Below are positions 1,762-33,541 of a stretch of 64,000 nt of DNA, piece by piece (the stretch's first letter is position 1; each line of letters opens with the position of its first letter). The notes under the pieces are model-generated. The model saw only the letters and a program-made list of their open reading frames with translations. It searched no databases and was not told the DNA's origin. The stretch lies in the NCBI GenBank assembly GCA_965205675.1, contig OZ242186.1:1472001-1536000 (forward strand). Reading direction: 5' to 3'. Source of the DNA: Nitrosopumilus sp. (GTDB lineage Archaea; Thermoproteota; Nitrososphaeria; Nitrososphaerales; Nitrosopumilaceae). The translations under genes were made by a program, and so were the position numbers.

Positions 1762-3245
1762 GTAACTGTCTAGAGTTTTGAAGTAAAATCTCCAAGATAT
1801 TCTAAAGAATAATCATGAAAGTTTAATCCTCGTAATCTGCATGTCTCCTTTATACTCATCAGTATCTTATGAGAATCAGCACCATGAATGGTTCTATGAC
1901 CGTTTGTAATTTTACGAATTATCACATTTGGTCTGATTGCCCTCTCTGCTGTGTTATTGTGTGAATCAGTTCCAGTAATTAGGAATGTAAAAAGCATTTC
2001 TCTCTCACGTTTCAATCTTTTTACAAACCTGATACAGTTTTTCTCTGTGTATTTTTTTGATATGATGTGATTAATTCTCCTTTCAAGATTCTTTTTTGCA
2101 TGGATTCTTTCTGATTCTGATTTTATTTTTGCCACACCATGAGAGTCATAAATTATTTTCTTGAGATTCTTGGCAAATGGTGCAAATTCTGGTCCGGGAT
2201 TCTTGTGATTAATGGTATCATTAACCTCTCTGAGATAATGGATGTGACATTTCTGGTGAGTGCTTCCAACATGGTTCCATGCAGGGTACGAATCACTTGT
2301 AATGTTGCCATCATATCCCTTGAGAATTCTCTTGGGAACATCCATTGAACGTGATTTGTCAATCTCGTAAATTACAGTCCATTTACTCACAAATGCCCAC
2401 AACCAGTGGTTCTGGCCATCTACCCTCCAACTTGTCTCATCACCATGTATGTTTAGATCTTCTTTTAACTCCACAATCATTGTATCATATCTGCTCCCAA
2501 ATGCTTTTGATACTATTGATACTGCATGATTAATTGCAGATTCTGTAATGTGCAGTGAGAAGAGCATCTGCAAAAGATGAGATATTTTACCATACGATAA
2601 TCCGATAGTTTTTAGTGATGTGATTAGCACCATGAGCCTAATTCCAAACCTTTCATTTGACAGTACAGTGTGAATGTTACCCGAGATTTGTTTTTTGCAG
2701 TTTGTGCAGTATCGTCTAACTATCGTATATTTTGTCACAACTGCTTTTGCAGGAATGATGTCTTCTACTATTCTGGTGTATGAATCAGTTGGTTCTGAGA
2801 GTGATTTGCCACATGTGTTGCACTCTTTTTGGTCAACTGTAATGGCATCATCAATGTGTGCTGTGCATTTCCAAAGACGCACATAATGGATTTTCTTCTT
2901 TTTGGTCAACTGTAATGGCATCATCAATGTGTGCCCGTCTGCTTCTGCTTTTTCTAGGATGTCTTGATGTTTTCTTCTTTTTTGCAGTTTCAGTCTTGTT
3001 TGGTTTTGCTTTGATATTTCTTGCAACAAGTGTAGACACTGTTTGTTTTAGTTCTGCAATTTCTCTGTGTAGTGATTCAATATCTTTGCGTAACTGACGG
3101 TTTTCTTGCTCCAGCGAGTGACATCTGTTACGATAATATTCCAGCTCATCATATACTGACAATTGTATATTGTAATTTGTCACTGATCAGAAAAGATATA
3201 GATAAAAAATATTAAAGAAAGTACTTCAAAACTCTAGACAGTTAC
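1762..3245 (-). mobile_element. Single-ORF IS66-family element, copy 1, frameshifted by a 73-bp insertion
   Basis: Perfect 24-bp IRs GTAACTGTCTAGAGTTTTGAAGTA; HGDETSW and NNTAERAIRP motifs; nearly identical to 26235-27645 except for the insertion at 2824-2934. Confidence 0.92.
2824..2934. repeat. Repeat-spacer-repeat unit 1 (38-bp duplication, 35-bp insert)
   Basis: TCTTTTTGGTCAACTGTAATGGCATCATCAATGTGTGC at 2824-2861 and 2897-2934. The intact IS66 copy has it once. Confidence 0.95.
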
Positions 3246-3251
3246 AAAAAA

Positions 3252-3410
3252 TGTTGTATCCTAGAATCGGCTCGTCTCTTATTTCACATCATATTCTTCC
3301 CCTGTCTGCTCATCCATAACACCCTTGTTTCCCTTTTCTGGCATCTTTTTCACATTGCTTTTGCAGGTGTCCTTAGATTGTCCCAGTCAAGTAACATATG
3401 CGGTTTTATA
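3252..3410 (-). mobile_element. Degenerate IS481 3' end
   Basis: Similar to 1438-1600 (TGTTGTATCC terminus, EQTGEEYDVK-coding region). Confidence 0.7.
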
Positions 3411-3549
3411 TAATTACTTGATAATAATAATCAGACAAATAATCGAGATTGATGAGAAGGCCAAGTGGAAAACTATTATTCAAAATACTAGTCTACACAA
3501 GGAAAATTCAATTTGAATAAGATCTGTATTTCATATAACCCCTCGAAGA

Positions 3550-3897
3550 TTACATAGAATCGGATTTCTTTTTACTTTTCTGAATCAAAATTTTCTTTAT
3601 TCTAGAAATTGTAGGATAACTGTAACTCCTCCTACGATAATTTGCAATCATAATTTTCCAATTTTTTAATCTCCATTGAGCTTGTTCGGCAGTAACAGAA
3701 TGAACTTCTTTCTGAATGATACTTTTCCTGCCTACTTTTAGAGTTCCAGCATCTTTTGCAGACCATCTATTTTTTGCAAATTTAAGACCAGAAAGGATCT
3801 CAGACACAGGCATTTCTTTGAAATAGGCTTTCAATCTTTTTAATTCTGCATCAGACGGCTTTTTAGAAATTAGTAATTCGATAGTAGACTTTGCCAC
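3550..3897 (-). CDS. Basic hypothetical protein
   Basis: Clean 115-aa ORF with host-like codon usage; no family recognised. Confidence 0.7.
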   Translation of the reverse strand: MAKSTIELLISKKPSDAELKRLKAYFKEMPVSEILSGLKFAKNRWSAKDAGTLKVGRKSIIQKEVHSVTAEQAQWRLKNWKIMIANYRRRSYSYPTISRIKKILIQKSKKKSDSM

Positions 3898-4074
3898 AAT
3901 AAACAGTTCGGGTTATTGCTTAAGAGAATCTTGCTAAAGAATCATTTACTAATTGGTTCTAGTCATGTTTATTTATCAAAAATTGTCATTTTAGGCATGA
4001 GATATGCAATAATCTATGAAAAAATTAATAATTTTGATGTATTGGAGAGTATTGGGATGAGTTGTATGTATGGG

Positions 4075-4395
4075 AAATTGATATTTGTGAAACATTTGAG
4101 CAGGAACTGGTAAAACTAGAGATAAAACACATCATGGCAAGAGTAAACCATCCACAGATAAACGGCAAGCTGGAAAGATTCCACGATGAGATTCAAAGAA
4201 AACAGAAATGGTTTGAGACTGTAGATGAGATGGTCCACTGGTATAACTATATCAAACCACACATGTAACTTGACTGGGATTAATTTTGAGACACCAGCAA
4301 AGACTGCAAGAAAGATGCCAGAGAAAAGAACAAGAGTTGTTGATGAGCAGACAGGAGAAGAGTACGATGCAGAATAAGGGGCGAACTGATTTTGG
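4075..4395 (+). mobile_element. IS481-family fragment (pseudogene)
   Basis: ARVNHPQINGKLERFHDEIQRKQ followed by a premature stop; paralog of 1438-1761. Confidence 0.75.
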
Positions 4396-4397
4396 GA

Positions 4398-4692
4398 AAT
4401 ATCAATTGAAATTCTCAAATATTTCTTTGTAAAGATAATTATTCATTACTTTAGAAATAACAAAAATAATTATTTCCTAGAATGTGTAATTTGATGTACT
4501 TTCCCATCTGCTGATGATTGAAGAGATTTGGAGACAGTGCAAACATGCTAATGTTGAATCAGATTTTTATGAATCTATTCATGAAATGAGGCATACAGTT
4601 ATGGAATATTTTAGAACCCATAAATTTGATTTGAATATGTATCAGTATTTTGCAAGAACAGTGAATTGAAAAGACTTATGATCTGGGGTATA
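4398..4692 (+). mobile_element. Abutting 3' ends of an ISH3-like element and an IS630 element
   Basis: About 4398-4515 is the reverse complement of about 59133-59250; about 4516-4692 matches about 11488-11666, including the IR TTATGATCTGGGGTATA. Confidence 0.8.
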
Positions 4693-4740
4693 AGTATGGT
4701 GAAAATATACTTTTAATAGTTGAATTTAAGATAATTCGTA

Positions 4741-5280
4741 TTGATAGATAAGATTGATGAATTGATAATTTCTGCCCTCTCTCAAAATTCAAAACAAAAA
4801 GTTTTTGAGATTTGGGATTTTTTGAAGGGATTTAATTATGATTTAACAGAAGATGAAATTGAATCAAGAATATCAAAACTTGAAGAAGATAAAATTATTA
4901 AAGGATACACAATAACTGTAGATGCAAAGAAAATTTTACACAAGGTCATACGCGTAGATCTTGTCACGTTTAGGATATCTCAAGCACTTCCAAAAAGAGT
5001 AGATGGATTAAAAAAATATCTCAATGATGCGCCATTTGTTTTATTCTCAGGTAAAACGCGTGGGGGGTATGATTGGATTACAGTAAAATCATTTTTATCA
5101 AACGATATGGCGGATGAAGAAAGTGATATTTATCGAAATTTGTTTGGAGATATTATTCAAACATATGAGGTATATGATTTTGTTCCACAGACAGATGCAT
5201 CAATTTATGCATTAACTTATACAGAAATTGAATATAAAAAATTTCTCAAAGAATGGACACCTCCATTTATTGGATCATAA
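4741..5280 (+). CDS. Lrp/AsnC-family transcriptional regulator
   Basis: DKIDELIISALSQNSK...RISKLEEDKIIKGYT wHTH pattern followed by GGYD in the RAM domain. Confidence 0.8.
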   Translation: MIDKIDELIISALSQNSKQKVFEIWDFLKGFNYDLTEDEIESRISKLEEDKIIKGYTITVDAKKILHKVIRVDLVTFRISQALPKRVDGLKKYLNDAPFVLFSGKTRGGYDWITVKSFLSNDMADEESDIYRNLFGDIIQTYEVYDFVPQTDASIYALTYTEIEYKKFLKEWTPPFIGS

Positions 5281-5281
5281 A

Positions 5282-6118
5282 TTATAACTTTGTTTTTTTA
5301 AAGTGAATTGTCTCATCTATCATTGAATGGGTTTGTAATCTCAAACTCATCAAAAATTTAATCACCTCTGCTCTTTGTTTTGGATTAATTCCATGTGCAT
5401 CTTCTATCAGGTCATCAATTCTTGAAAGCGTAATTTTTAGAGATAAATGAGTTTTTTTTATCAAATTAAGTGCCTTTGAATTTTTGTTAGTAACTTGATT
5501 GTTATTTTTAATCGTTTTTTTGATGACACGGATTTGTTTTACAGTCATCTTTTTGTTGACTATCTCATCTACTAGATCACTATTTTGTGATCCATTAATT
5601 GAAGTTAATTCCAATGCTTGACTTACACTCAAATCATTTTGAAGGATTTTTTCTTGTATATTATTTGAAAGTTTTAAGAGCTGCATTCGATGAGACACAT
5701 ATTCTTCACTCTTTCCAATTTTTTGAGCTAAATCTCTTACTGCTCCCCATCCGTATTCATTTACATATTTTTGGTAAGCTTCTGCCTCCTCTATCGGATC
5801 CATAGATTTTCTCTGAATGTTTTCAGTTAATTGAATCTCATATGCCTGTTTGTCTGTCAAGTCTCGAATTTTACTTGGAATGAATCTCCAACGTAGGGAT
5901 CTACATGCTACATATCTACGATGTCCTGCAACTACCTCAAACCCATGATCAAGAGGTCTAATTACAATTGGTTGCAATAGCCCATGTGTCTTTATGCTAG
6001 ATTTTAGATTTGCTAGTTCTTGAGAATTTGAAGCTGCCATATACCTGACAGGGGATTTTGATGGTCGAATCATTCGAATTTCAATGGGCTCTACAATTGA
6101 ATTATCAATTATTTCCAT
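5282..6118 (-). CDS. ParB/RepB/Spo0J-family protein
   Basis: GLLQPIVIRP, VVAGHRRY, ENIQRKSMDPIEEA and an HTH. Confidence 0.9.
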   Translation of the reverse strand: MEIIDNSIVEPIEIRMIRPSKSPVRYMAASNSQELANLKSSIKTHGLLQPIVIRPLDHGFEVVAGHRRYVACRSLRWRFIPSKIRDLTDKQAYEIQLTENIQRKSMDPIEEAEAYQKYVNEYGWGAVRDLAQKIGKSEEYVSHRMQLLKLSNNIQEKILQNDLSVSQALELTSINGSQNSDLVDEIVNKKMTVKQIRVIKKTIKNNNQVTNKNSKALNLIKKTHLSLKITLSRIDDLIEDAHGINPKQRAEVIKFLMSLRLQTHSMIDETIHFKKTKL

Positions 6119-6537
6119 TTGGAATCCTCATATTCTAAATTGATAAAATGAAAATAGTATTTAACTTTTAATCAAAAAATTACAATAATTTTTAATTGCT
6201 GTTAAATTAATTTTATAATAACTAAAATTTCATAAAATCATCATATAGCGACGATCAAAAGTTCGTAAACATCTTTACAGTATTTCTAAAGATACAATTT
6301 GCAACATCAATCTTGAATCTTGTCATTCTAAAATATTTTGACACTGTATCATTTATCGTAAACATTGTATAATATTCTGAAACCTGCAACGCATACTTGC
6401 TTATCTTCCAGCATTGTTCTATCATGTTCTTCAAGTACGGCGATCCTTTTGGCAACCATATTAGTTTGACATCTCTATTGTTTGCAAGATATTCTTTTAC
6501 TTTTTTTGATTTGTGAACTGATGCTCAGTATAGCATG

Positions 6538-6632
6538 ATTGCAATCTTGCCATATTTCCAGTGCGACCTTGGAGCATGAAGTAGCTCACGCCAACTTTGA
6601 CAATTGCAATCTTGCCATATTTCCAGTGCGAC
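6538..6632. repeat. Repeat-spacer-repeat unit 2 (30-bp duplication, 35-bp insert)
   Basis: ATTGCAATCTTGCCATATTTCCAGTGCGAC at 6538-6567 and 6603-6632. Confidence 0.93.
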
Positions 6633-6940
6633 TCCTTTAGATATTCTACAAATCTTCCAGCATTGAATCTGTCATAAATTTTAAACAGCTGATTGTTATT
6701 TTCCATAATTGTTCCATACTGCCAAACTTTCATGATTGCCTAGGTATGAAAGAAATATTCTCTTGGCAACTGGTGACTGGGTATTTTTTCCTGTCTTTGT
6801 ATCCCTTAGAAAAAATGCCTCATCAGCCATTGCAATGACAAATCCTTCTTTTTTAGGCGTAAAATTCTCTTTCTGATGCGTTGCTGCCAGCTTTTCACAG
6901 CAGATACGCTTGCATGGTGGATGTGATATTTTTGTGCAGT

Positions 6941-7080
6941 AGATGTCTTGCGTAATTATTTCTAGGCGTGAATTTTGCTGCAGGATTTTTCAAATTGGTT
7001 GAGAAATTTGAATTTTCAGGTATGAATTCTGTTAAAATACAAAATTTGAGAAAAAATCTCTATAATTACGCAAGAGGTCT
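6941..7080. mobile_element. 140-bp MITE, copy 1
   Basis: IRs AGATGTCTTGCGTAATTA / TAATTACGCAAGAGGTCT; 3-bp TSD AGT; near-identical to 43278-43417. Confidence 0.9.
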
Positions 7081-7352
7081 AGTTTTTGCAGATATCCTAC
7101 TGGTGCATTATCTTTCTGATGTGAGTAATGTGAAATTTCACTCCAGTGGAATAAGATATTGCTTGCTGTAGCATCACAGGCGTAAACAAAGTTAGCATTG
7201 CCTTTGAGATGATACAGTCCGTTTTCTTCTTTGAAATTGTTCTTGGTCTTCCACTCCTTGGATGGTCGTAGAGGCCATCGATTTCAAAACAATTCACTCA
7301 TTTTCGTACCCAGATTGTGCAGTGTCTTTGCAGTGTGTTCTATTTCCTTACC

Positions 7353-7462
7353 ATCTTTTAGAATCATCAATACTGCCAAGCATTCTTACCTCTAGTCAGA
7401 ATTTCTTGATGTCGTTGGATTAATTATCTTTTAGAATCATCAATACTGCCAAGCATTCTTAC
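7353..7462. repeat. Repeat-spacer-repeat unit 3 (37-bp duplication, 36-bp insert)
   Basis: ATCTTTTAGAATCATCAATACTGCCAAGCATTCTTAC at 7353-7389 and 7426-7462. Confidence 0.95.
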
Positions 7463-7650
7463 TGCAACTTTTGAATTTTTTGTAATGCTGCTTTCAAGGG
7501 ATTCTAACTTCCATGTATTTTGTTGGGTTGACTGATCAAAAGGTTTTTTGTTTTGGAATTATTTAGTTCACGAACTTTGTCTTTTCGCTATACAATACTA
7601 TTGATTTGACATGAGGATCATTCTAATACATCATTTCTCAAAGAATCCTG

Positions 7651-8460
7651 ATGAGAAATCCGACTGCAATAATCGGACTGCTGGTTTTGAGCGTAGCATT
7701 GCTTACTATGACAATATACGCAATTGACACTCAGATAATTACTATCGGAGATAAATCATCTGCTGTTCCCATAAAGACCACGTTAATCAATGATTCATTT
7801 AGCACCACACTTGATTCTTGGACATTTCAAGAAAATCCCAACACTGTAGCAAATCAGAGATATTGTAACACGCAAAATACTAATGTATACAGTCTGACTC
7901 ATAATTCAAATCATGATGGTTCTGCACTAATTGATAATTCAAATCATGATGGTTCTGCACTAATTGATAATTCAAATACCTGTTGGTTTGGTACAGTAGG
8001 CGGTGTAAAGTCATTTACAGTTCCAACAGTTCATGATGGCAGCACATTGGAAATGACTCTTGATTATCGAAGTGTTGCCGGTTTAATACCCACAACTGAT
8101 GCGCCTAGTGCCATTTTTACATTGGAAAGGACTCTTGATTATCGAAGTGATGCTGGAGCAATTTCTGCAGGAGTTGGCCATGTAAATAACATGTCTGTCT
8201 TGATTACTGATTCTGATGGTAATATCCTAAAAGAAGAAATATTGTATTCTGGTGCACGCAGCTCGGACTTGAGGGATACTGGCTGGCAAGAAAAGACAAT
8301 TATCGTAAACTCGATAAACGCTACAAAATGCCCATGTGATGTATTTATTTATACTGCGGATTCCTGGCTTGCAGAATGGCAAAAAAAGATTTACTTTGAC
8401 AATGTCAATGTAACACTATCTCATCCAATATCTGATATTGATTACATTTCCTTTCCGTGA
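7651..8460 (+). CDS. Secreted beta-rich protein with internal duplications; C-terminus probably replaced by IS5 sequence
   Basis: Signal peptide; 33-bp tandem duplication at 7901-7977 (NSNHDGSALID x2); 75-bp in-frame insertion at 8044-8156; last codons overlap an antisense IS5 remnant. Confidence 0.7.
   Translation: MRNPTAIIGLLVLSVALLTMTIYAIDTQIITIGDKSSAVPIKTTLINDSFSTTLDSWTFQENPNTVANQRYCNTQNTNVYSLTHNSNHDGSALIDNSNHDGSALIDNSNTCWFGTVGGVKSFTVPTVHDGSTLEMTLDYRSVAGLIPTTDAPSAIFTLERTLDYRSDAGAISAGVGHVNNMSVLITDSDGNILKEEILYSGARSSDLRDTGWQEKTIIVNSINATKCPCDVFIYTADSWLAEWQKKIYFDNVNVTLSHPISDIDYISFP
8044..8156. repeat. Repeat-spacer-repeat unit 4 (~38-bp duplication with 3 mismatches, ~37-bp insert, in frame)
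   Basis: ACATTGGAAATGACTCTTGATTATCGAAGTGTTGCCGG (8044-8081) vs ACATTGGAAAGGACTCTTGATTATCGAAGTGATGCTGG (8119-8156). Confidence 0.85.
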
Positions 8461-9058
8461 TGCTGGTGCTTCCAGTTCTGGCAGATGTGCAGCATCATGG
8501 GATGAATCATCAGTAATTTTGAGTGAAATTATTTTTTTGTTTTGAGATCAGCACCAACATGAATTTTCAGAAATGCTCTTCTCATATGCCATTTCTGTCT
8601 CATCCATTTACCTCTGTTTGTAACTTTAATTCCAGTACTATCAGTTGCTAGAATAATTTCATTTTTAGAATTATCATCCATAGACTCATCAATTGAGATC
8701 AAGCTTGTTTACTCTCTTGTGAATTGATGTAAAACCAGGAACTGTTGGGATTCTATTACAATATGCATGAGTCATTTCTTCTGTTTGTCTGAATGGTAAT
8801 CCAAAATACACTCTGGCATATCCAAGCAATTTCATAAACGAATCAGTATAATCAAACTTTTACCTCTCTTGTTATGATTCATGACCCCTAGTTCTTTGTG
8901 CCAGTTATCAATAATATCAAATGACATTATGATTTCACCTCTTCAGACTAGTTTCTCATTGTATTGATTCTAATTTTCCATAAAACTAGTCAGAATGTAG
9001 GATCCAAAGCTGTTACCATGAAATAAAGTTGATCAGATTGTTATTTGTTCGACAGAGT
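8410..9058 (-). mobile_element. IS5-family (IS903-like) transposase pseudogene
   Basis: Fragments YNEKLV*RGEI, GLPFRQTE, ATDSTGIKVTNRGKWMRQKW, FLKIHVGAD with stops and frameshifts; boundaries approximate. Confidence 0.75.
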
Positions 9059-9531
9059 ACCTTTCAGACAGAGTTAATGTACGGGCACCCATCAAATCAG
9101 GGAAATTATCCCTCATAGTTGTATAGTTTGAGAATTTCTTTGAGATATCTTGCTTGATTATTAGTTCTGAATGTAAAGTTAAACAATTGCCTGCTTTCAG
9201 GCCAGATTGTCTTTATCTTCTTTTCCCCCGTATCTGAATTGCTACCATCAGAGTATGCAGCCCCTCAAAGATAATTCCTTTTTTGCTAATCTCAACTATT
9301 ATTGCATTTGTTGTAACATACAGAATTCCTTTACCTACACTGAATTGATTTGAAGCTGTTTCTCAATTTTTTCTTTATTTCTTAGAACAAGTGTCATACT
9401 CTAAATGCCTCCTTTTTGATAAAAGCTTGATTTTACTCTGTTTTTAGCAATATCAACTAATATCAAACTGTTACCCAACATAATTTTATTGTTTTAAAAA
9501 AGATTAAATATTTAGTTGGGTAAAGAATTAC

Positions 9532-10401
9532 ATGGTTTCAGTAGTCAAAAGAAAAAAGGGAAATGAGTATTATTATTTGATTTATCATTCAGGCAAAACT
9601 TTGCATGAAAGATATCTCGGTAAACAGATCCCAAAAAACATTGATTCAATCAAACTAGAATTTGAAGAAAAAATGTTTACAAAAGAGAACATTCCATTAT
9701 TGGAGAAAATACGTGATAATCATTCAAAACATATCATCAAAGCAGATCAGAAAATAATACAATCAGAAAATCATGAATTCAAAATATATCATATCTACAG
9801 CACCCAGAGAATAGAAGGCAGTACTATGACATATGGTCAGACAAAAAAACTATTGGAATACAACTTGTCTCCTAAAGACACGGCAACAGAACATATCATA
9901 GAAGCTAAACAAATGGAAGAAATATTTGATGATTTACTTGTGACAAAATCAGACATTTCCAAAAAATTAATCCTTCATTGGCATGAAAAACTATTTGAAA
10001 AAACAGACATAAACAATTCGGGGAGTTTTAGACGAGAAGATGTTGCACCATCTGGAGGAAAAACGGAATATGTGTTATGGGCAGATGTAATTGCTGATAT
10101 GGAAGAACTCGTAAAATGGTATGACAAAAATAAAAAATCAATGAATTCTGTAATACTATCTGCGTTATTCCATAGAAAATTTGAGTTGATACATCCATTC
10201 ATAGATGGAAATGGACGAATTGGCAGATTGTTAATGTTGCTAATCTTACACAAAAATAGATATCCTTTAATGAATATTTTGCCAAAAGAAAAACTCACCT
10301 ATATCAATAAACTTGAATCATCATATCTGAAAGATAGTAGCTTGATTTTTCTAAAATGGGTTATGGCAAAGTATCTCAGAGATAATAAAAAATATCTCTG
10401 A
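9532..10401 (+). CDS. Fic-family protein
   Basis: Canonical HPFIDGNGRIGR motif and an STQRIEG helix. Confidence 0.92.
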   Translation: MVSVVKRKKGNEYYYLIYHSGKTLHERYLGKQIPKNIDSIKLEFEEKMFTKENIPLLEKIRDNHSKHIIKADQKIIQSENHEFKIYHIYSTQRIEGSTMTYGQTKKLLEYNLSPKDTATEHIIEAKQMEEIFDDLLVTKSDISKKLILHWHEKLFEKTDINNSGSFRREDVAPSGGKTEYVLWADVIADMEELVKWYDKNKKSMNSVILSALFHRKFELIHPFIDGNGRIGRLLMLLILHKNRYPLMNILPKEKLTYINKLESSYLKDSSLIFLKWVMAKYLRDNKKYL

Positions 10402-10572
10402 TTTTTTTGTATGTATAGCGAAAAGATAAAGTTCGTGAACTAAATTTCAAAAAACTAGAAATCAATTGAACTTATACCTCGGAGCATAATTCTTTGCAAT
10501 TTTTCAAAACAAATAGCAATACTTTTTGATCAGTAGTTAGAAATAATTTCATGGACATCACAAATGACGAGT

Positions 10573-11666
10573 TATACCTCGGAGCATAATTCTTTGCAAT
10601 TTTTCAAAACAAATAGCAATACTTTTTGATCAGTAGTTAGAAATAATTTCATGGACATCACAAATGACGAGTTACTCCAGGCCTACAAAAAAGAAAAGTA
10701 CGGTAAGAAAAAGGAAAGACTGCATGCAATGTGTATAATTAAGATCAACAAATCTACAATTGCTGAAACTGCAAGCCAAATGTTTTGTACATACAATTCT
10801 GTAAGGAACTGCCTTGATTCATTTGAAAAATATGGATTGGGGGGTCTGGAGGACCTCCCTCGTTCTGGCCGTCCGCCATTAATTTCACACAAAAAATTAC
10901 AAAAAATAGAGCGTACATTTAAGAGAATTTCAGATGGAATGACTCCAAAAAAACTGATACAATTCATATTTTACAGAACACGCATTACATATCATATCAC
11001 TCATGTGCGTCGTTTGATGTACAAATGGAATCTAAAACCAAAGGTTCCACAAAAGGTACATGTGCGAGCAGCATCCAAGGATGTGTGCCGCAAGTGGAAA
11101 AACCGCATCATTTCACGCATAGAAAAGGCAAAAAAGAAAGGTTTTACAGTATTTATCCAAGACGAGTCTGTATTTGTAGACGATGTACGTCTTGGCAAAA
11201 AATACTGGACAGATGCACACCAACGAATGATTGTACGTTGGAGAGGATCACATCAAAGATTTTTGGTTTATGGAAATGATGATAATCAAAGTTTTTTTAG
11301 ATCGTATGAAAAATTTAATTCAATTGCATTTATAGATTATTTGGAGGCAGCTCGTAGAAAATTTGGAAAAATATTTGTTATCGTCGATAGAGCACCACAA
11401 CACAAAGCTAATGATGTAAAAAAATATCTGCACAAAAACAAAGATGTCAAACTGGCATATCTTCTGAGAGGCTCCCCGCATTTGAGTATGATTGAAGAGA
11501 TTTGGAGACAGTGCAAACATGTTAATGTTGAATCAGATTTTTATGAATCTATTCATGAGATGAGGCATACAGTTATGGAATATTTTAGAACCCATAAATT
11601 TGATTTGAATATGTATCAGTATTTTGCAAGAACAGTGAATTGAAAAGACTTATGATCTGGGGTATA
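10573..11666 (+). mobile_element. IS630-family element (transposase 10651-11643)
   Basis: IRs TATACCTCGGAGCATAA / TTATGATCTGGGGTATA; QDES...DRAPQH...IEEIW triad. An extra 100-bp left end precedes it at 10473-10572. Confidence 0.9.
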
Positions 11667-12294
11667 CATAGAAAATACAATGTGCAACTAGTAATCAACA
11701 CCACACACAACAAAACTAGGCAGTTTTCAGATTTGTGCCATCTTCAATCAAATTTTATCATATATGCTATTAAAATCATTTAGATGTTTGATATTTGCAA
11801 TTTGTATAGCGAGAAGCATGAGTTCGTGAGTTATTTTTTAGGTGTTTCAATTTGTTTATAGTCAAATCATGATTCATTTGACATTACCAAGTACATAATT
11901 TGTAAGAATGAAATTCACAAAATACAAGATTATCAAATATTATTTTTAATATGATCAATTATGCCAACAGGTCCATGGAGGGTTTTACAAGATTCCAGAA
12001 TTCAAAAGGTCTTATTAGATTCAAGCCAGTTAAATTCTTAATCTGATCTTTGTTTTTCAAAAGTTTTTCATCCATAGTCATGAAATAATAACAACAAAGT
12101 CTTATTGCTACTTTACACGAAGATCCATACTTTGAGGTCTCATTATTTCTGGTCCTGAAAAGGTAGGAGATTAGGCGTAAAAGTCATAACTATATGAAAT
12201 AAAAAAAGCGAAACCCTGAGATCAATTCAACTTTAACAAATTTTATTTATTCTAGATTAAAATATTTCATTTCCTGATGATTTTATTTTAATAC

Positions 12295-23153: not shown

Positions 23154-23594
23154 ATTTTGAATGAATTATCAACTATTCTAACTCAAAAGATCTAGATCGT
23201 AGTTTACACTTACAGAATCACCTCAAAACAAACTAGAGCATTAATGGTAATCTTCAGGAAACCATTTCATGAAAGAAACAAGCATTAATTTTTTGAGAAA
23301 AGCATGCAAGAATGAAAAAAATGCAAAAGCAAAGATGAAGGCTGCAATACTAAGAAAACAAAATATTCCGTATTCTGTGATATGTGCCAGTTTGGATGTC
23401 ATACCATCAACTCTGTCCTACTGGCTAAATCAAATGGATAAAGAGGGGATAACTGCATCACACCACAGAAAATATTTAGCCTCTCGTTGTTTTTTGAGCG
23501 AAAAACAGCTATTATCATTAAGAGATGATTTAATTTTAGGTCCCAGAAATTTGGATTCAGTCAATTCATGTGGAGTACAAGAATGGTAATTAAT

Positions 23595-25727: not shown

Positions 25728-25929
25728 ATTAATCATGTGAATAAAAAATACAACAAGCCATACTCTGCAAGAGGAATGCATGAATTACTACATAAAATTG
25801 GATCCTCATCTAAAAAACCAAGACAGACTCAGTCACAAATCAGCCTCAAAAGAGGAGCAGAATCGTTTTAAAAAAACAGTCGTTCCAGAATATGCTTAAA
25901 AATAAAGATAAAAAGAGACCGGAGAGGTC

Positions 25930-26234
25930 TTACTCCAATTCTAAAGGAATGTTTACGCTTCCAAAGTCTTCGTTGATTCTAAAGGCATAACTTTTTGAAG
26001 AATCATACTCAAACTCGGTTCCACCATATCCGATGTTTGGTCCAAAGAGAAAATTAAATTCTCTGGAGTCACCAGGATTCAATACAATTTGTCCACTTGT
26101 AAAATCCATTCCAGAGTACTTGAAAACTTTGGAACCATCCCAGACATCATATGCGCAGATAGAAGGACTGGTACAGTTAATTGATGTGATGTCTGAACCA
26201 GTATTTTCTGCAAGCATGCGAATTGTCAATAGAG
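25930..26234 (-). pseudogene. 3' part of a probable extracellular protein gene truncated by IS66
   Basis: Open frame runs from the IS66 end to a stop at 25930, with no natural start. Confidence 0.6.
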
Positions 26235-27645
26235 GTAACTGTCTAGAGTTTTGAAGTACTTTCTTTAATATTTTTTATCTATATCTTTTCTGATCAGTGA
26301 CAAATTACAATATACAATTGTCAGTATATGATGAGCTGGAATATTATCGTAACAGATGTCACTCGCTGGAGCAAGAAAACCGTCAGTTACGCAAAGATAT
26401 TGAATCACTACACAGAGAAATTGCAGAACTAAAACAAACAGTGTCTACACTTGTTGCAAGAAATATCAAAGCAAAACCAAACAAGACTGAAACTGCAAAA
26501 AAGAAGAAAACATCAAGACATCCTAGAAAAAGCAGAAGCAGACGGGCACACATTGATGATGCCATTACAGTTGACCAAAAAGAGTGCAACACATGTGGCA
26601 AATCACTCTCAGAACCAACTGATTCATACACCAGAATAGTAGAAGACATCATTCCTGCAAAAGCAGTTGTGACAAAATATACGATAGTTAGACGATACTG
26701 CACAAACTGCAAAAAACAAATCTCGGGTAACATTCACACTGTACTGTCAAATGAAAGGTTTGGAATTAGGCTCATGGTGCTAATCACATCACTAAAAACT
26801 ATCGGATTATCGTATGGTAAAATATCTCATCTTTTGCAGATGCTCTTCTCACTGCACATTACAGAATCTGCAATTAATCATGCAGTATCAATAGTATCAA
26901 AAGCATTTGGGAGCAGATATGATACAATGATTGTGGAGTTAAAAGAAGATCTAAACATACATGGTGATGAGACAAGTTGGAGGGTAGATGGCCAGAACCA
27001 CTGGTTGTGGGCATTTGTGAGTAAATGGACTGTAATTTACGAGATTGACAAATCACGTTCAATGGATGTTCCCAAGAGAATTCTCAAGGGATATGATGGC
27101 AACATTACAAGTGATTCGTACCCTGCATGGAACCATGTTGGAAGCACTCACCAGAAATGTCACATCCATTATCTCAGAGAGGTTAATGATACCATTAATC
27201 ACAAGAATCCCGGACCAGAATTTGCACCATTTGCCAAGAATCTCAAGAAAATAATTTATGATTCTCATGGTGTGGCAAAAATAAAATCAGAATCAGAAAG
27301 AATCCATGCAAAAAAGAATCTTGAAAGGAGAATTAATCACATCATATCAAAAAAATACACAGAGAAAAACTGTATCAGGTTTGTAAAAAGATTGAAACGT
27401 GAGAGAAAAATGCTTTTTACATTCCTAATTACTGGAACTGATTCACACAATAACACAGCAGAGAGGGCAATCAGACCAAATGTGATAATTCGTAAAATTA
27501 CAAACGGTCATAGAACCATTCATGGTGCTGATTCTCATAAGATACTGATGAGTATAAAGGAGACATGCAGATTACGAGGATTAAACTTTCATGATTATTC
27601 TTTAGAATATCTTGGAGATTTTACTTCAAAACTCTAGACAGTTAC
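26235..27645 (+). mobile_element. Single-ORF IS66-family element, copy 2, intact (transposase 26297-27637)
   Basis: Perfect 24-bp IRs; coiled coil, zinc finger and DDE domain in one 446-aa ORF. Confidence 0.93.
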
Positions 27646-27951
27646 CATTTTTTGGAAATTATTTCATCCCTTAACTAGGAGAACATTATGGCCTATTATC
27701 GTATGTATAGACATCATGGAATATCTATGATAAAGTTAGAGATAGCAGATATCCACTCATCTTCTTTTATTGTGATAAAGACAATATTTTTTATTTTTTT
27801 TAAAAAAGACTTTAGAAAATCCAAGTGTGATTAAAGGATCATTTTTCATAGGTTTCAATGGGTTCATAATAGAAAATTATTTCCAATACACATTAGAAAA
27901 ACTATCAGGTGCAGGTTTTGATATTTATTACCAGAATTCAACAAAACAAAC

Positions 27952-28779
27952 ATGGAAATTTCTGTAGGACATACGCCTGATTCAGATGATGCATTCATGT
28001 TCTACGGAATGTTTACAGGCAAAGTGACATCTCCAGATTTTAAGGTAAATCATGTTATTGAGGATATTGAAAAATTAAATCGTAAGGCTACAAATCCAGA
28101 ACTAGATGTAACAGCTGTTTCAGTTCATGCATGTGCATTTATTCCAAGATATACCATATTGAGAAGCGGTGGGAGTTTTGGGATTAATTACGGTCCAATA
28201 GTTACGGCTAGAAAACAGATGAGTCTTGATGAGATTAAAAAATGTAAAATTGCAATTCCTGGGAAAATGACTTCGGCGTTCTTATTATTACAACTAATGA
28301 TTGGAAAGTTTGATTATGTTGAGATGAATTTCAGCGACATTCCCGAGGCGGTAAAATCAGGAAAAGCAGATGTGGGATTAGTAATTCATGAAACACAATT
28401 ATCTTATGAACAAGAAGGAAATGTCAAAATTTTAGATGTTGGTGAGTGGTGGAATAAAACAACAGGCGGATTGCCAGTTCCACTAGGCATCAATGTGATG
28501 AGAACAGATTTAGGCATGGATACTATAGTAAAATTTGACAAATATCTACAATCATCAATTGAGTTCGGTATTGAAAACTTTGATCATGCAATAGAATATG
28601 CCATGCAGTATGCTCGAGGAAAAGAACGAAGTTTAATTGAAAAATTTGTGAAAATGTATGTAAACAAAATCACTGTAAACATGGAAGATTCAGGTGAAGA
28701 ATCAATTAGAAGATTATTCAAAATGGCAAAAGAACAAAAACTAGTCCCAGATTTTGAAATCAATATTGCCAGCAGGTAA
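27952..28779 (+). CDS. mqnD: 1,4-dihydroxy-6-naphthoate synthase-like menaquinone biosynthesis protein
   Basis: GHTPDSDDAFMFY, GGSFGINYGP, IHETQL, LPVPLG, FVKMYVN. Confidence 0.88.
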   Translation: MEISVGHTPDSDDAFMFYGMFTGKVTSPDFKVNHVIEDIEKLNRKATNPELDVTAVSVHACAFIPRYTILRSGGSFGINYGPIVTARKQMSLDEIKKCKIAIPGKMTSAFLLLQLMIGKFDYVEMNFSDIPEAVKSGKADVGLVIHETQLSYEQEGNVKILDVGEWWNKTTGGLPVPLGINVMRTDLGMDTIVKFDKYLQSSIEFGIENFDHAIEYAMQYARGKERSLIEKFVKMYVNKITVNMEDSGEESIRRLFKMAKEQKLVPDFEINIASR

Positions 28780-28805
28780 TTATAGTACAAAAAAATTTAA
28801 CAATT

Positions 28806-29096
28806 ATGGGAGATGGCATAGGTGGAGCAGTTCTTTCAATTCTTACAAATAATGTTTTTGAATTACTAATCAGCCACACAAGAAAAGACAATCAGGAACA
28901 ATATGGAAAAATTGAAAAAATCATCATGAGCAAAATTGATGACCCAGAACAATCACAATATGAAGAAAAAACAAAAGAAGATTTAGAGAGAGCATTAAAG
29001 GGTAAATTTGTTTCATGTAATGTTCAATACAGAGATGGAAAAACAGATGCACTGGTGTGTAATGTATTTGTACAAAGACCGCCAGAAGGCTTTTGA
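28806..29096 (+). CDS. Hypothetical protein
   Basis: Clean 96-aa ORF downstream of mqnD. Confidence 0.7.
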   Translation: MGDGIGGAVLSILTNNVFELLISHTRKDNQEQYGKIEKIIMSKIDDPEQSQYEEKTKEDLERALKGKFVSCNVQYRDGKTDALVCNVFVQRPPEGF

Positions 29097-29177
29097 GAAT
29101 TCAAAATCCATAAAAAACTTTTGAGACAACTCTCCATGCAGTTATCGTCTAGGGATTAAAAGAACAGCATCTATAAT

Positions 29178-30550
29178 TATCCATGTGAATTGTTTTTATA
29201 CATTTCCTCTCTTTCTATACATCAGGGCATGGCTTTCGCTAGAGAATGGTTTCAATCAAAAGATGGCAGACATGTATCCATACGAGACTATTCTCTCAAT
29301 GCTATCTTCATCCTAGTTAGGATTGTTCGCAGTTATTAGACGAGGCCTTGTCCCTCAATAATTACAACGCGACTTGCAGTCCTAACTATAATTTTGTACA
29401 AATTCTCTCCTCTCCTTTAACATCCAATAAATCACCCTCAGGATCTTTGATGCACCAGCTACTGCAGCTTTGGATGATCCTCTTTTCTTTTTAATGCGAT
29501 TGTAAAATTTTGTAATGTCACTATCCTTGGCATGAATTGCATGAGTGTGTATGCATTCTGTTAGAACCCATCTCAATGTCATGCTTCCCCTTTTTGTTAT
29601 TCTGCCATGGTGTATTGTATCTGCAGAGTTTCTAACTGATGGTACAACTCCTGCATATGCACACAGTTTGTGGGAATCATTGAATCTTTCAATATCTGCA
29701 ATCTCTGATGCAATGACAAGCGAAGAATAATGCCCAATTCCCGGAATCGAGTTTATCAAAATTGCATCAGGATTAACTTTTACAGCAGCATACACTTTGG
29801 AATTAATCTCTGCAATCTGTAAATTAAGGTGGCTGATTTGTTGCAAGAATCCGTCTATTCTGTAATCTCCTAGTGCCTTGAGTCTTCTGTTGTATGTTTC
29901 AGTGAATGTAACTCCTGGAATCTTGATTCCTTCTTGTAACAATATTCCATGAACTGAATTCTTGACAGATGTTCTCCATTGGATTAGTTTTTTCCTATAT
30001 CTTACAAGCTGTCTTTGTTGTACAATCTTTTTGTCTGGAACATAACATGTGGCAATGTATCCTCCTCGTAAAAGATCTGCCAATATCTTGGCATCAATCT
30101 TGTCTGTTTTCTTTTTTGATGCAGCAATTGCCTTTGTCAAATATGGGTTTGAGAGTGTGACGTTTTTGTATCCCAAAGTATCTGTGAGAAATCGATACGT
30201 GTCATACCAGACTGATGAGGATTCCATTACAATATTTGCAGAAATTGGTATTTTTGCAAAATGCTTTTTTATGGATTCATGCGTGTTATCCACTTTGTCA
30301 TTTTGTAATACTTTGCCTGCATCATCCATTTATTACTTGAAGAAACTTCTTGTGCAGGTCAATGCCCACAAACATGCCTTTCTTTGGATTTTTTCTAATC
30401 TGTTTGTTTGTAATCTTTTTTGGAGCCGAGTATTTACGAACCTTGGAACTAGATTCATTTTTTATGCTATCTGATTTCCTTGCTTTCTTATTCACATATC
30501 CATGTGAATCCCTTTTAACTATTGTCGGTATTTTTGCCATATTAATTACA
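29178..30550 (-). mobile_element. IS110-family element A, transposase frameshifted near 30330
   Basis: MFVGIDLHK, VMESSS, KKTDKIDA, SIPGIG, YAGVVPSVRNSA, ITKRGS; long 3' non-coding end. Confidence 0.9.
29230..29388 (-). ncRNA. Candidate bridge/seekRNA of IS110 element A
   Basis: Two stem/internal-loop domains, homologous to and covarying with 30550-30715. Confidence 0.65.
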
Positions 30551-30715
30551 GCTTACGCTAATACACTCATACTTTCAATCACAGATGAAACCAGACACAT
30601 ATCCATTCGGGGTTCTCCCCCAGTACCATCTTCATCCATTTATTAGGTGAAACCGCGGTTATAGTTTCGAGGTATTATGCATCCTCAATGTGAAAACGCG
30701 GCCAAACTCCTAACT
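30550..30715 (-). ncRNA. Candidate bridge/seekRNA of IS110 element B
   Basis: Stems TTAGG/CCTAA, CGCG(G)TT/AACCGCG, GAGG/CCTC, GGGG/CCCC; same layout as in element A. Confidence 0.65.
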
Positions 30716-31832
30716 GTAATGTTTTACAAATTATTGATGACATTGAACAAATTCTCTCCTCTCTTTTAGCATCCAATATATGACACGCAATAACTTTGAT
30801 GCAGCAGCAACTGCTGCCTTTGAGGTCCCTCTCTTTTTCTTAATGCGATTATAAAATTTTGTAATGTCGCTATCTAGTGCGTATCTAACATGTGCATGAA
30901 TCGCCTCCACTAGCAACCATCTTAGCATGGTGCTTCCTCTCTTTGTAATTCTTCCGTGATGTATTGTATCTGCAGAATTTCTCACCGATGGAACAATCCC
31001 TGCATATGCACATAACTTGTGAGAATTTGAAAATCTACTAATCTCTGCAATTTCTGAGAATATGCTCAATGCAGTGTATGGTCCAACTCCAGGTATTGAT
31101 GTCAAAATACACACACCAGGATTATCATTTACCATGCGACGTATCATGGAATCTATCTTTGCAACCTCCTTTTTGTGAAATTTTATGCTTTGTAGGTACG
31201 AATCTATTCTATAACTCTCCAATTTTCCAAGTGCACGTATGTGTTCTGAGGAAAATGGTGTTGCTTTGATATGGATTCCCTCCTGTAGTGTAATACCATG
31301 TATGGAATTCTTCATCTTTACAATGATGCGCACAATCTTGTGTCGATGTCTTACAAGCTGTCTGTATTGCACAATTGTGTGATCTGGCACAAATGATTCT
31401 GCAATGTATCCCTCCTCGTAGCAAATTTGCAAGATGGTACGCATCAATTTTATCAGTCTTTTTGAGTGATGATGCTATTATCTTTGTGTTGTATGGATTA
31501 GATAGTATAACATCAAGATGTAATTTGTCTGTCATGTGTCTATAAAGGCCATACCAGACAGATGATGACTCTAAAACATATTTTGCGTTCTTTGGAATTT
31601 TGGATGTAATTTTGCTAATAGCAGAAAAATCACTGGAAATCTTTTTGTTAAATAATAATTTGCCAATCTCATCTACTGCTGCCACCTGTACAGAGTTCTT
31701 GTGAACATCCAATCCTACAAACATCAAATATTTTTTTTCAGGAAGGGTAGTGTGTTTGTTTGCATTTCTTACTTTCTTGATACGAATGCAAGTACCATCT
31801 AATTTCCTAGCTGATTTTGGCACATATGGTTA
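30550..31832 (-). mobile_element. IS110-family element B, transposase frameshifted near 31410
   Basis: MFVGLDVHK, LESSS, KKTDKIDA, SIPGVG, YAGIVPSVRNSA; an extra G in the LRGGY codons. Confidence 0.9.
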
Positions 31833-31945
31833 TAGTTATTAGTAAAGTTATGATTAAAATTAATATTGTAAAATCATATGTATTATCTTGATTTTTTGTA
31901 TTTTGGGCTATTTTGAGAGCAGTTAGATTCATTGGCTGATCCATA

Positions 31946-32281
31946 TTGATTTCTGAAGCATCAATTAAAATTTCTGTTAATTTTAAAAAAAGTATTGATT
32001 ACTCCTATGTAAGAACATGTTCTGATGGTAGCGCTATTGTAAGCTTGATTGTGATTAGAGATGTTGATATTTCTTTTGATATTATTACAACTGCAGAAAG
32101 GTATGCAAAAGAAAAAGATTCTTTCACAGTACATGTTAATACTCTTGAAAAAGTATCTAATGAAATTGATTTAGAACTATCTGAGTGGATTATCCATATT
32201 GTAATTGGTAAAATTTTAATGATAGGTGTGGTTATGTTTATGTTCCTGAGAAGATCTAAATCTAATTTGGAAGAAGAATAG
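31946..32281 (+). CDS. Hypothetical, possibly a fragment with a C-terminal membrane anchor
   Basis: ORF with a hydrophobic C-terminal helix and charged tail, next to the IS110 end. Confidence 0.4.
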   Translation: MISEASIKISVNFKKSIDYSYVRTCSDGSAIVSLIVIRDVDISFDIITTAERYAKEKDSFTVHVNTLEKVSNEIDLELSEWIIHIVIGKILMIGVVMFMFLRRSKSNLEEE

Positions 32282-32298
32282 GAAAAAAGAGAAGAACT

Positions 32299-32508
32299 CT
32301 AGTTTTTTCTTATTTTTCTTTTATCTCTACAAATACCACAAAGATATTTTTTTGTAAATTCATTTAATTCTTTTTTAAATTCATTTGTTTGGAAATATTT
32401 TTCTCCTGTTTTTAATCCTCCTGGCACAGATTTCCCACATATGATGCAATGAATTTCCAGATTAAATTTTATAACTTTTTCATTTTTTGATATTTTTCCT
32501 ATTATCAT
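32299..32508 (-). CDS. Small CxxC zinc-binding protein
   Basis: CIIC...CGIC in 69 aa. Confidence 0.7.
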   Translation of the reverse strand: MIIGKISKNEKVIKFNLEIHCIICGKSVPGGLKTGEKYFQTNEFKKELNEFTKKYLCGICRDKRKIRKN

Positions 32509-32594
32509 GAGGGCTTATTTTCTTTCATTTTGACATAAACAATAGTGTTTTCCTAAATCTCATGGATATTATATTGAAAAATTGACTTCAGTAC

Positions 32595-33527
32595 ATGTTT
32601 GCAGTGTGGTTTAGGGTAATTCGCATACGTTTTCTATTAGCATCTGTTATTGCTGTATCCGTAGGACTGTCTCTGAATTGGTGGCAGCACTCTTCAATAG
32701 ATTTGATGGATGCACTTCTTACTTTTGGAGGTGTTATGGCACTTCATACTAGTGTTGATTTATTAAATGATTTTTGGGATTTTAAACGCGGTATTGACAC
32801 TGCAACAAAAAGAACAAAAATGAGTGGCGGTACTGGCGTACTGCCTGAAGGCTTGCTTACACCCTCTTCTGTTTATCGTGCTGGTATTGCATTTTTAATA
32901 ATTGGATCTATGATTGGCAGTTACTTTGTTATTACTGATGGCATCACCATTGCCATAATTCTCGGGTTTGCAATCTTATCTATTTATTTTTACTCTACTA
33001 AAATCATTGACTCTGGTTTGGGGGAATTTTTTGTGGCTGTAAAAGGTGCAATGATTGTCATTGGAACTTTTTTTATTCAATCTGGGCAAATTTCTGTAGA
33101 ATCTATCCTTGCCGGAATTTCTGTAGGATCTCTTTCTGCACTAGTATTGTTTATTGCATCTTTTCCTGATCATGATGCAGACAAGTCCAAAGGCAGAAAA
33201 ACTTTGGTGATTGTAGTAGGAAAACAAAAAGCTGCGAAGTTATTTTGGGTTTTTCCTTTAGTTTCTTATTTGGCAATAATCATTGGTGTTGCTACCACCC
33301 TTTTTCCAGTATTTTCTTTGATCAGCTTATTTAGCATCCCACTCATGATAAAATCGGGATTTGGATTACAGAAAAATTACAATTTTGTAAACGATCTTGT
33401 CCCATACATGTCTACAACTTTGATGTTTAGCAGAGTTACTGGAGCGTTGTTTGTGATTGGATTTTTAATTTCTGTCATGTGTAATCAGTTTTTCGATAGC
33501 TTCTTGTTACTGGAGCGTTGTTTGTGA
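32595..33527 (+). CDS. UbiA/MenA-family prenyltransferase with altered C-terminus
   Basis: NDFWDFKRGID and DHDADKSKGRKTL aspartate motifs; the original end GFLIGM* survives at 33550, after the duplication. Confidence 0.88.
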   Translation: MFAVWFRVIRIRFLLASVIAVSVGLSLNWWQHSSIDLMDALLTFGGVMALHTSVDLLNDFWDFKRGIDTATKRTKMSGGTGVLPEGLLTPSSVYRAGIAFLIIGSMIGSYFVITDGITIAIILGFAILSIYFYSTKIIDSGLGEFFVAVKGAMIVIGTFFIQSGQISVESILAGISVGSLSALVLFIASFPDHDADKSKGRKTLVIVVGKQKAAKLFWVFPLVSYLAIIIGVATTLFPVFSLISLFSIPLMIKSGFGLQKNYNFVNDLVPYMSTTLMFSRVTGALFVIGFLISVMCNQFFDSFLLLERCL

Positions 33528-33541
33528 TTGGATTTTTAATT
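33435..33541. repeat. Repeat-spacer-repeat unit 5 (36-bp duplication, 35-bp insert)
   Basis: GTTACTGGAGCGTTGTTTGTGATTGGATTTTTAATT at 33435-33470 and 33506-33541. Confidence 0.95.

Follow-up and report, generated by a model that had tools for sequence, protein, structure and literature searches.

Solitary repeat-insert-repeat units in a Nitrosopumilus chromosome: probable products of off-target spacer integration by Cas1-Cas2

A window of 64,000 nucleotides (positions 1472001-1536000) from the ammonia-oxidising archaeon Nitrosopumilus sp. (chromosome OZ242186.1, a single contig of 2,011,361 bp with 33.7% G+C) contains five loci at which a piece of local sequence is present twice, as a direct repeat around a unique insert of spacer size. 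Our search of the whole chromosome identified 14 such isolated units in two size classes. We consider them to be probable products of ectopic (off-target) spacer integration by Cas1-Cas2, the adaptation proteins of a CRISPR system. A first-pass annotation of the window had suggested a promiscuous adaptation module, and this suggestion is supported by the empty sites found for eight of the 14 units, by the repeat-like targets of the shorter size class and by an intact cas4-cas1-cas2 set in the same chromosome.

The five loci of common geometry described in the first-pass annotation were all found again. Unit 1 (2824-2934) consists of two 38-bp copies (2824-2861 and 2897-2934) around a 35-nucleotide insert (2862-2896), unit 2 (6538-6632) of two 30-bp copies (6538-6567 and 6603-6632) around 35 nucleotides (6568-6602), and unit 3 (7353-7462) of two 37-bp copies (7353-7389 and 7426-7462) around 36 nucleotides (7390-7425); these three are on the minus strand. 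On the plus strand, unit 4 (8044-8156) has 38-bp copies (8044-8081 and 8119-8156) around 37 nucleotides (8082-8118), and unit 5 (33435-33541) has 36-bp copies (33435-33470 and 33506-33541) around 35 nucleotides (33471-33505). The copies are 100% identical except in unit 4 (92%, three mismatches), which is therefore the product of an older event. Reading the sequence confirmed that the four exact repeats begin with G on one strand (GTT, GTA, GTC and GCA). Altogether, the repeat search over the whole window gave nine families of direct repeats with a spacing of up to 120 bp; besides the five units these are a perfect 100-bp tandem, a 33-bp tandem, a pair with 79% identity and an AT-rich pair of 20 nucleotides.

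The genome-wide census was made by scanning for exact direct repeats within 300 bp of each other and by subsequent refinement by eye, with mismatches allowed. Four of the 14 solid units belong to a 30-bp class with a period of 64-67 bp (genome start positions 98273, 199961, 439378 and 1478538, the last being unit 2). The other ten form a long class with repeats of 36-39 bp and a period of 70-75 bp (541166, 732792, 1247936, 1474824, 1479353, 1480044, 1505435, 1599699, 1704607 and 1774762). The repeats differ at one to three positions in four units. Three doubtful candidates are kept outside this count (30670 with a repeat and insert length of 23/39, 422831 with 22/42 and rich in A, and 1900635 with 33/24), and those at 380323, 1355950, 1679404/1679434 and 568936/568967 were dropped as imperfect tandems or protein repeats. 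Isolated exact direct repeats that are 28-45 bp long and 1-270 bp apart number 19, and 11 of them have a gap of 32-40 bp; the distribution of insert lengths is thus sharply peaked and not broad. Interspersed exact repeats of at least 20 bp within 300 bp did not occur in three Markov-simulated genomes of equal size. The density of one scar per 13 kb noted earlier is correct for the window but does not extend to the genome, where 14 units are spread over 2011 kb. A 5.2-kb section of the window holds four of them, a clustering that exceeds what uniform placement allows (P = 9e-5); the GC-skew profile at the cluster was uninformative.

For eight of the 14 units we found an empty site, in which the repeat is present once and the insert is missing, in paralogs or in related genomes. 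These units are thus true insertions accompanied by a target duplication of 30-39 bp. Elsewhere in the genome, the 38-mer of unit 1 is found as a single copy at 24 sites, and in six paralogs the pieces flanking the unit match with 100% identity and overlap by exactly 38 bp. At least five paralogous copies, about 1.2 kb long, of the IS630-like insertion sequence (IS) that carries units 2 and 3 contain the repeat of each unit once; for unit 3, an overlap of about 37 bp between the flanking pieces was seen in the paralogs at 874039-874488, 880179-880642, 1066897-1067348 and 1816548-1817006. The unit at 1774762 is located in another multi-copy element, and about 15 paralogs have its repeat once. 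Single-copy conserved DNA shows the same: for unit 5 and for the units at 1704607 and 98273, all five related genomes compared have adjoining flanks with a single repeat and lack the insert. Only one of these five contains the region of the unit at 439378, and there the site is empty. For four units the homologous region was not found in the five relatives, and the relatives searched yielded no orthologue of the stretch around unit 4. Since the IS copy that carries unit 1 is 100% identical to six others over 861 and 352 bp, this insertion must be very recent.

The inserts have the length of spacers: those of the 14 units are 32-37 nucleotides long, and the 11 spacers of the resident CRISPR array measure 34-37 nucleotides. 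Inserts in related genomes also lie within the spacer range of their own genome (34-36 for both in the congener G053, 35-40 for both in G009). When the inserts were compared with the genome using blastn-short, none matched another one and no match of 13 nucleotides or more was present near any unit; outside the repeats, the flanks on the two sides are unrelated. The inserts are thus not copies of adjacent DNA. Explanations by a copy or reverse complement of nearby DNA (template switching or an amplification chimera) were rejected, as no local matches exist. Tandem duplication, slippage or templated insertion from nearby do not fit either, with inserts unlike their neighbourhood and unrelated flanks, and neither does a miniature inverted-repeat transposable element (MITE) or IS with target-site duplication, as no insert matches another one.

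Twelve of the 14 inserts have no match in the genome and two have chromosomal protospacers with unrelated flanks. The insert of the unit at 1774762 is an exact copy of a sequence that a tandem gene array at a distance of 430 kb contains five times; the match covers 34 nucleotides if two ambiguous boundary bases are counted, and the repeat of this unit probably measures 36 bp in reality, with G as its first base, and the insert 34 nucleotides. The source array (1337331-1346500; insert at 1774800) comprises five tandem copies of about 1.87 kb with internal 21-bp repeats and is probably a repetitive surface-protein gene family. The insert of unit 4 matches positions 1021736-1021770 at 33 of 35 positions with unrelated flanks, which is consistent with a chromosomal or related protospacer. 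No common motif is evident in the flanks of these two protospacers (n = 2). Neither the whole array nor window positions 6500-8200 had a match in a phage collection, and exact scans of IMG/VR with 24-nucleotide cores of the inserts of units 5 and 1 (two of the 14 inserts), from which diverged protospacers would escape, gave none either. Protospacers in about 2.5 Mb of sampled relatives did not exceed chance.

The enzymes needed for such integrations are encoded in the genome. It contains one complete type I-B locus with cas6-cas8-cas7-cas5-cas3, cas4-cas1-cas2 and an array of 30-bp repeats. The array (698283-699002) has 12 repeats and 11 spacers, and its leader faces cas4; it is followed by cas4-cas1-cas2 and then by an IS630-like transposase gene, and cas3, cas5b, cas7, a candidate gene for the large subunit and cas6 are found on the other strand. 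One cas1 (E = 1.3e-93) and one cas2 (E = 2.6e-16), both free of internal stops, are present in the genome, and the Cas1 scores 437 bits with the Cas1b model TIGR03641 (cut-off 304). They are located at 699655-700841, outside the window, which contains no cas gene, as previously noted. The lineage is thus not devoid of cas1: an intact cas4-cas1-cas2 set lies next to an array with 30-bp repeats and spacers of insert length. Nothing that the first-pass annotation had named as able to overturn its proposal was found in the analyses that address it. The IS630-like transposase gene (DDE_3, 701265-702263, minus strand) is situated between cas2 and cas3, with adaptation and effector genes on opposite strands. 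In addition, the resident array has only 11 spacers, compared to more than 100 in the closest relative. This rearrangement of the cas locus could have left adaptation uncoupled or deregulated.

Family 1 casposons occur in the genus Nitrosopumilus, and a casposon-type Cas1 had been put forward as an alternative agent. We reject it, since the sole Cas1 homologue of the genome is the CRISPR one and the duplication size is wrong: casposases yield duplications of 14-15 bp, according to the passages of PMC4872114 that mention them.

The four units of the shorter class duplicate exactly 30 bp, the length of the resident array repeat, and their targets resemble this repeat. In a fixed register they match it at 18, 15, 18 and 19 of 30 positions, with a null expectation of 9.6 (standard deviation 2.3); taken singly, the targets have P values of 6e-4, 0.019, 6e-4 and 1.4e-4, which combine to 4e-9. 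Read in the orientation of the array transcript, all four targets begin with G, and three of them end with TTGnAAT, comparable to the ATTGAAAT of the array repeat; the fourth ends with AAAATT. The repeat ends of the 30-bp units agree with the crRNA handle at 6-7 of 8 positions. Unit 2 of the window has the target with 19 identical positions (P = 1.4e-4), with G as first base and ATTGCAAT as its end. The units are not bona fide CRISPR arrays, as each has two repeat copies only. Repeats of different units are unrelated, each of them matching only itself or its own IS paralogs. The geometry, the insertion with its duplication, the agreement in length, the repeat-likeness of the 30-bp targets and the presence of the enzyme genes are observed, whereas the agency of Cas1-Cas2, and that of the resident type I-B enzyme in the long class, is our inference.

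The same script was applied to the first 400 kb of six congeners and of the source genome. Three units were found in G017, which is cas1-positive with a 30-bp system (repeat/insert lengths 40/33, 38/35 and 36 with two mismatches/39), and three in G053, cas1-positive with a 36-bp system (37/36, 36/35 and 37/35, the repeat of the last one looking CRISPR-like). G009, cas1-positive with both systems, has seven (four with 33/38-40, and 37/36, 38/37 and 31/35), and the source genome has two in its first 400 kb. The cas1-negative genomes G018 and G007 have none in their 400 kb. Thus, 15 units in 1.6 Mb of cas1-positive DNA, 13 of them from the three 400-kb samples of congeners, compare with one in 1.2 Mb of cas1-negative DNA (binomial P = 0.0017). 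Candidates with flanks that are also similar, as in tandem protein repeats, were dropped (G018 36709; G007 74286, 177210 and 387682; G053 340485, 340515 and 344634; G017 181953 and 287657), and G009 128620 was set aside as doubtful. Two further units were located at most 20 kb from the cas loci in G017 and G053; the one in G017 is 4.7 kb from the array, and its target is identical to the G017 repeat at 17 of 30 positions. Homologues of cas1 were detected in 63 of 201 sampled genomes of the family if casposase-like hits are counted; this tally takes in two genomes flagged as unpublished (G132 and G117), on which no other claim depends.

Two array types exist in the genus. G009, the closest relative, has two cas1 genes, a 30-bp array with a repeat identical to that of the source genome at 29 of 30 positions, and a 36-bp array of 127 repeats. 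The array of G053 has 36-bp repeats, spacers of 34-36 nucleotides and a period of 70-72. The duplication size of the long class equals the repeat length of this second array type, and the earlier proposal of two rulers (30 and 36-37 bp) agrees with both the two size classes of units and the two array types of the congeners. The congener L182 (21-9396) carries a 37-bp array (40 exact repeats) and a 30-bp array (94 repeats), tail to tail and both upstream of one cas4-cas1-cas2 module; one spacer of the 37-bp array is duplicated. Degenerate remnants of an L182-type 37-bp repeat are present in L187. The sample of G053 contains a solitary repeat-spacer-repeat structure (43914-44022) with a 37-bp repeat ending with AAGGATTGAAAC, which is identical to the 36-bp repeat of G053 at 22 of 36 positions and close to the repeat of the relative G149. 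This structure could represent an orphan mini-array or what is left of a third repeat family.

Several observations weigh against off-target integration by Cas1-Cas2. Ten of the 14 units duplicate 36-39 bp, unlike the 30 bp of the only array in the genome, and with 4-12 of 30 positions in common with the array repeat their targets are at the level of the null; the target of unit 3, for instance, has no similarity to it. The long targets are also unlike the long repeats of four relatives (z = 0.05 for the 36-bp repeat of G053, 0.6 for the 37-bp repeat of G149, -0.6 for the 36-bp repeat of G009 and 0.6 for the 37-bp repeat of L182); one of them matches the G149 repeat at 21 of 37 positions, which we regard as chance among 40 comparisons. 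Over 22 long-class units from four genomes, repeats measure 36.5 +/- 2.0 and inserts 35.8 +/- 2.0, and the sum of the two (72.3 +/- 1.55) is tighter than either part (r = -0.71). This constant sum falls outside the prediction of a simple two-ruler model. Ambiguity of the boundaries accounts for part of it, since the repeat gains length at the expense of the insert when bases match by chance, but fails to account for the four 33/38 units of G009. No protospacer adjacent motif (PAM) can be derived, since neither the inserts nor the array spacers matched viruses or sampled relatives in the searches described above. The cross-genome control has its own weak points: the cas1-negative G002 holds one unit-like structure (30/42, or 34 with one mismatch/38), and because G018 and G002 have 53-54% G+C, only G007 is a like-for-like control, against which P is 0.035. 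Moreover, the compared genomes are metagenome-assembled chromosomes of one genus and thus not fully independent. Finally, assembly error is excluded by indirect arguments only.

A motif shared by the ten long targets reached 16.0 bits after optimisation of the orientation, compared to 14.5 +/- 1.0 for the null (z = 1.4, not significant). A G follows the repeat in seven of the ten long units, which carries no weight because the orientation was chosen to maximise the score.

The long class could be explained by two enzymes, with the resident type I-B integrase making the 30-bp class and a 36/37-bp-repeat module, since lost from the chromosome or carried by an unassembled plasmid or virus, making the long one. 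Both systems do occur together in nature, as G009 with its two cas1 genes and two arrays shows, and the period of the 36-bp array of G053 is that of the long units; the back-to-back arrays of L182 and the repeat remnants in L187 point in the same direction, and mobile elements with type I-B systems have been described in the phylum (relevant passages of PMC6563490). However, the source genome and G017 have one cas1 each and nevertheless carry long units, and no copy of a long repeat is left in the source genome. As unit 1 is very recent, the loss of the module would have to be still more recent. In addition, the long targets resemble none of the four long repeats tried, and even the long units of G053, which has a 36-bp repeat of its own, are not repeat-like. 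Two enzymes therefore appear to be a somewhat unlikely solution, and we slightly favour the resident integrase with a longer default stagger over a lost second module.

It might also be possible that the long class, at least, arose without Cas proteins, by another integrase or by a repair or template-switch pathway with a staggered break of about 36 bp. The missing repeat-like motif in the long targets, the sum of repeat and insert of about 72 bp that stays constant across genomes with different canonical repeats, and the unit-like structure in the cas1-negative G002 would fit such a process. Against it stand inserts that have the length of spacers and share nothing with each other or with adjacent DNA, as well as the enrichment of units in cas1-positive genomes. 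Casposases, none of which is encoded in the genome, produce far shorter duplications (14-15 bp; passages of PMC4872114 as above). A Cas-independent origin is thus very unlikely in our view. Its plausibility is lowered further by the products themselves: no transposase or integrase is known to make target duplications of 33-40 bp around unique 35-nucleotide inserts.

An artefact of assembly or consensus building must be considered for metagenome-assembled chromosomes: the genome and its relatives were assembled into single contigs or to near-completeness, the labels of the relatives describe them as metagenome-assembled genomes, and several units are located in multi-copy IS elements, where assemblers err. 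Units are found in single-copy conserved DNA as well, however, and four of them have one to three mismatches between the repeats, indicating age. An artefact would not select targets that resemble the CRISPR repeat of the same genome, nor would it bring in an exact 34-nucleotide piece from 430 kb away. Furthermore, the same classes occur in other assemblies, and an artefact would not have spared the cas1-negative ones. We consider this explanation to be highly improbable.

Surviving units sit where damage is tolerable. Their placement inside ordinary genes, as described in the first-pass annotation, holds in part only, since most units are found in IS copies, a tRNA-like gene, the 3´ ends of genes and intergenic DNA. 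Unit 1 breaks a gene for an IS66-family transposase (1770-3183, minus strand), which is now split into the overlapping open reading frames (ORFs) 1770-3029 and 2851-3183; the former contains the Pfam domains DDE_Tnp_IS66 and zf-IS66. The unit shifts the frame, with an open frame of 425 amino acids in its presence and of 447 after excision in silico. The element itself (window 1770-3248) occurs at 24 other genome sites, and for several copies the identity is 100% across more than 1.2 kb, suggesting that a burst of transposition took place very recently.

Units 2 and 3 struck an already degenerate copy (6244-7596, minus strand) of the IS630-like element of about 1.2 kb. According to the paralog map, this copy holds both units and a MITE-like insert of 142 bp; its ORF 7097-7297 on the minus strand contains the Pfam domain HTH_32. 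The MITE-like element (6940-7081) has about 30 copies in the genome with 94-99% identity. Unit 4 adds 75 bp (25 codons) in frame to the ORF 7651-8460, for which the Pfam search gave no family. Just upstream of the unit, the same ORF contains a 33-bp tandem repeat (7894-7959, 91% identity, two copies and a partial third). Unit 5 is located at the 3´ end of the ORF 32595-33527, which encodes a UbiA-family prenyltransferase (PF01040), and rewrites its C-terminal tail (open frame of 313 amino acids with the unit and 297 without). The stop codon of a conserved gene is the site of the unit at genome position 1704607.

In an AT-rich tRNA-Phe(GAA)-like gene, the first five bases are cut off from the remainder by the unit at 541166. 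This gene (541136-541279, minus strand, 72 nucleotides, 50% G+C) is part of a stretch of about 540 bp that is absent from five relatives and may belong to an integrated element; in its intron mode, ARAGORN reads the unit as a 72-nucleotide "intron". A lethal hit, which would argue for an artefact, was rejected, as a canonical GC-rich tRNA-Phe(GAA) is encoded at 1563605-1563679 and the copy that was hit is in a strain-specific region.

A duplication of another kind is present further downstream in the window. A perfect 100-bp tandem duplication in two copies (10472-10671) extends across the start codon region of the ORF 10651-11643, so that the upstream region and the first codons of this ORF are doubled. 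Other perfect or near-perfect tandem duplications of 87-157 bp are found in the genome, for example near 65054, 734489 and 1078981.

The following course of events would produce the units. Cas1-Cas2 of the type I-B cas4-cas1-cas2 module would load a prespacer of about 35 nucleotides and attack a chromosomal site by two staggered strand transfers, instead of the leader-proximal repeat of the array. Repair of the gaps would then duplicate the DNA between the attack points, resulting in the order target, insert, target. At a repeat-like site, with G at position 1 and TTGnAAT at the far end, the canonical stagger of 30 bp would be used (four units), and at a site without resemblance to the repeat the stagger would be about 36-38 bp (ten units). 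The resident integrase would thus follow its 30-bp ruler only if sequence anchors are present and fall back on a longer default otherwise. Most inserts would be foreign or of unknown origin, with two of the 14 taken from the chromosome or a close relative of it. Only insertions into tolerant DNA, such as IS copies, a redundant tRNA-like gene, gene ends and intergenic spacers, would survive. One may go further and postulate that type I-B Cas1-Cas2 can also integrate irrespective of sequence, in a second mode that has a built-in stagger of about 36 bp and operates genome-wide in wild populations, and that the coexisting 36/37-bp arrays of the genus were born from such events. We regard this extension as speculative and rather unlikely. 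If it were true, the raw material of new arrays and a new repeat length would be seen arising in nature, and the mutational cost of adaptation would be visible in the chromosome.

The natural rate of off-target integration and its cost for the host were open questions, and the evidence from natural genomes has been called circumstantial in a passage citing the earlier work. Our search of the literature, in which most subscription journals were outside the coverage, found no report of such units in the genus. Here we present at least 14 fixed natural events in a wild archaeal chromosome, more of them in three congeners, and a class of long duplications. A transposase gene and a tRNA-like gene were broken in the process, and one protein received a new C-terminus. 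The events also provide a natural record of the target preference of the integrase, namely repeat-like sites for the 30-bp class; the second size class is unexpected and not predicted by current ruler models. The pairs of full and empty sites are concrete substrates for testing the cognate enzyme. Furthermore, spacer-like records of past encounters may exist outside annotated arrays.

Off-target integration has a precedent in the type I-E system of Escherichia coli, where, according to the texts that cite the work of Nivala, Shipman and Church from 2018 (bioRxiv 10.1101/148544, PMC7054753 and PMC9456107), it generated single-spacer loci termed "neo-CRISPR"; the same passages credit the authors with circumstantial evidence from two other species. 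As described there, the E. coli loci are like the units found here in that, at chromosomal sites outside the array, a single insert of spacer size lies between two copies of a non-CRISPR target about as long as a repeat. That work used overproduced Cas1-Cas2 and supplied oligonucleotides, whereas the units reported here are natural and fixed in a wild archaeal chromosome, 14 of them in 2 Mb. In addition, the system here is of type I-B with Cas4, and most duplications are 6-9 bp longer than the repeat.

Closer to our 30-bp class are the in vitro reactions of Cas1-Cas2 from Pyrococcus furiosus, as presented in the relevant sections of PMC6698737. The enzyme integrates at non-CRISPR sites that resemble its 30-bp repeat and have G or C 30 bp apart; at the preferred sites, a G is attacked and the attacks come in pairs spaced by 30-31 bp. 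Similarly, our four 30-bp units have G as their first base and the ends in common with the repeat. These experiments were done on plasmids, and a 36-38-bp class is not among the results reported in those sections. Moreover, the far end of the repeat (TTGnAAT) is the best conserved part in our units, whereas the last four bases are dispensable in P. furiosus.

For Haloarcula hispanica, also with a type I-B system and a 30-bp repeat, the pertinent part of PMC4872114 reports that the size of the duplication follows an anchor midway along the repeat and that 29-33 bp are duplicated when this anchor is moved. Duplication size is thus not fixed by the enzyme alone, as may also be the case in the genome studied here. 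The aberrant sizes of H. hispanica were obtained with an engineered array and stay at 29-33 bp, whereas the natural long class reaches 36-39 bp (33 in one relative) at sites without a recognisable anchor. Casposons, too, combine a Cas1-family integrase with a target-site duplication; they are, however, elements of kilobase size with terminal inverted repeats and duplications of 14-15 bp, in contrast to the unique inserts of 32-37 nucleotides and the duplications of 30-39 bp in this Nitrosopumilus chromosome.

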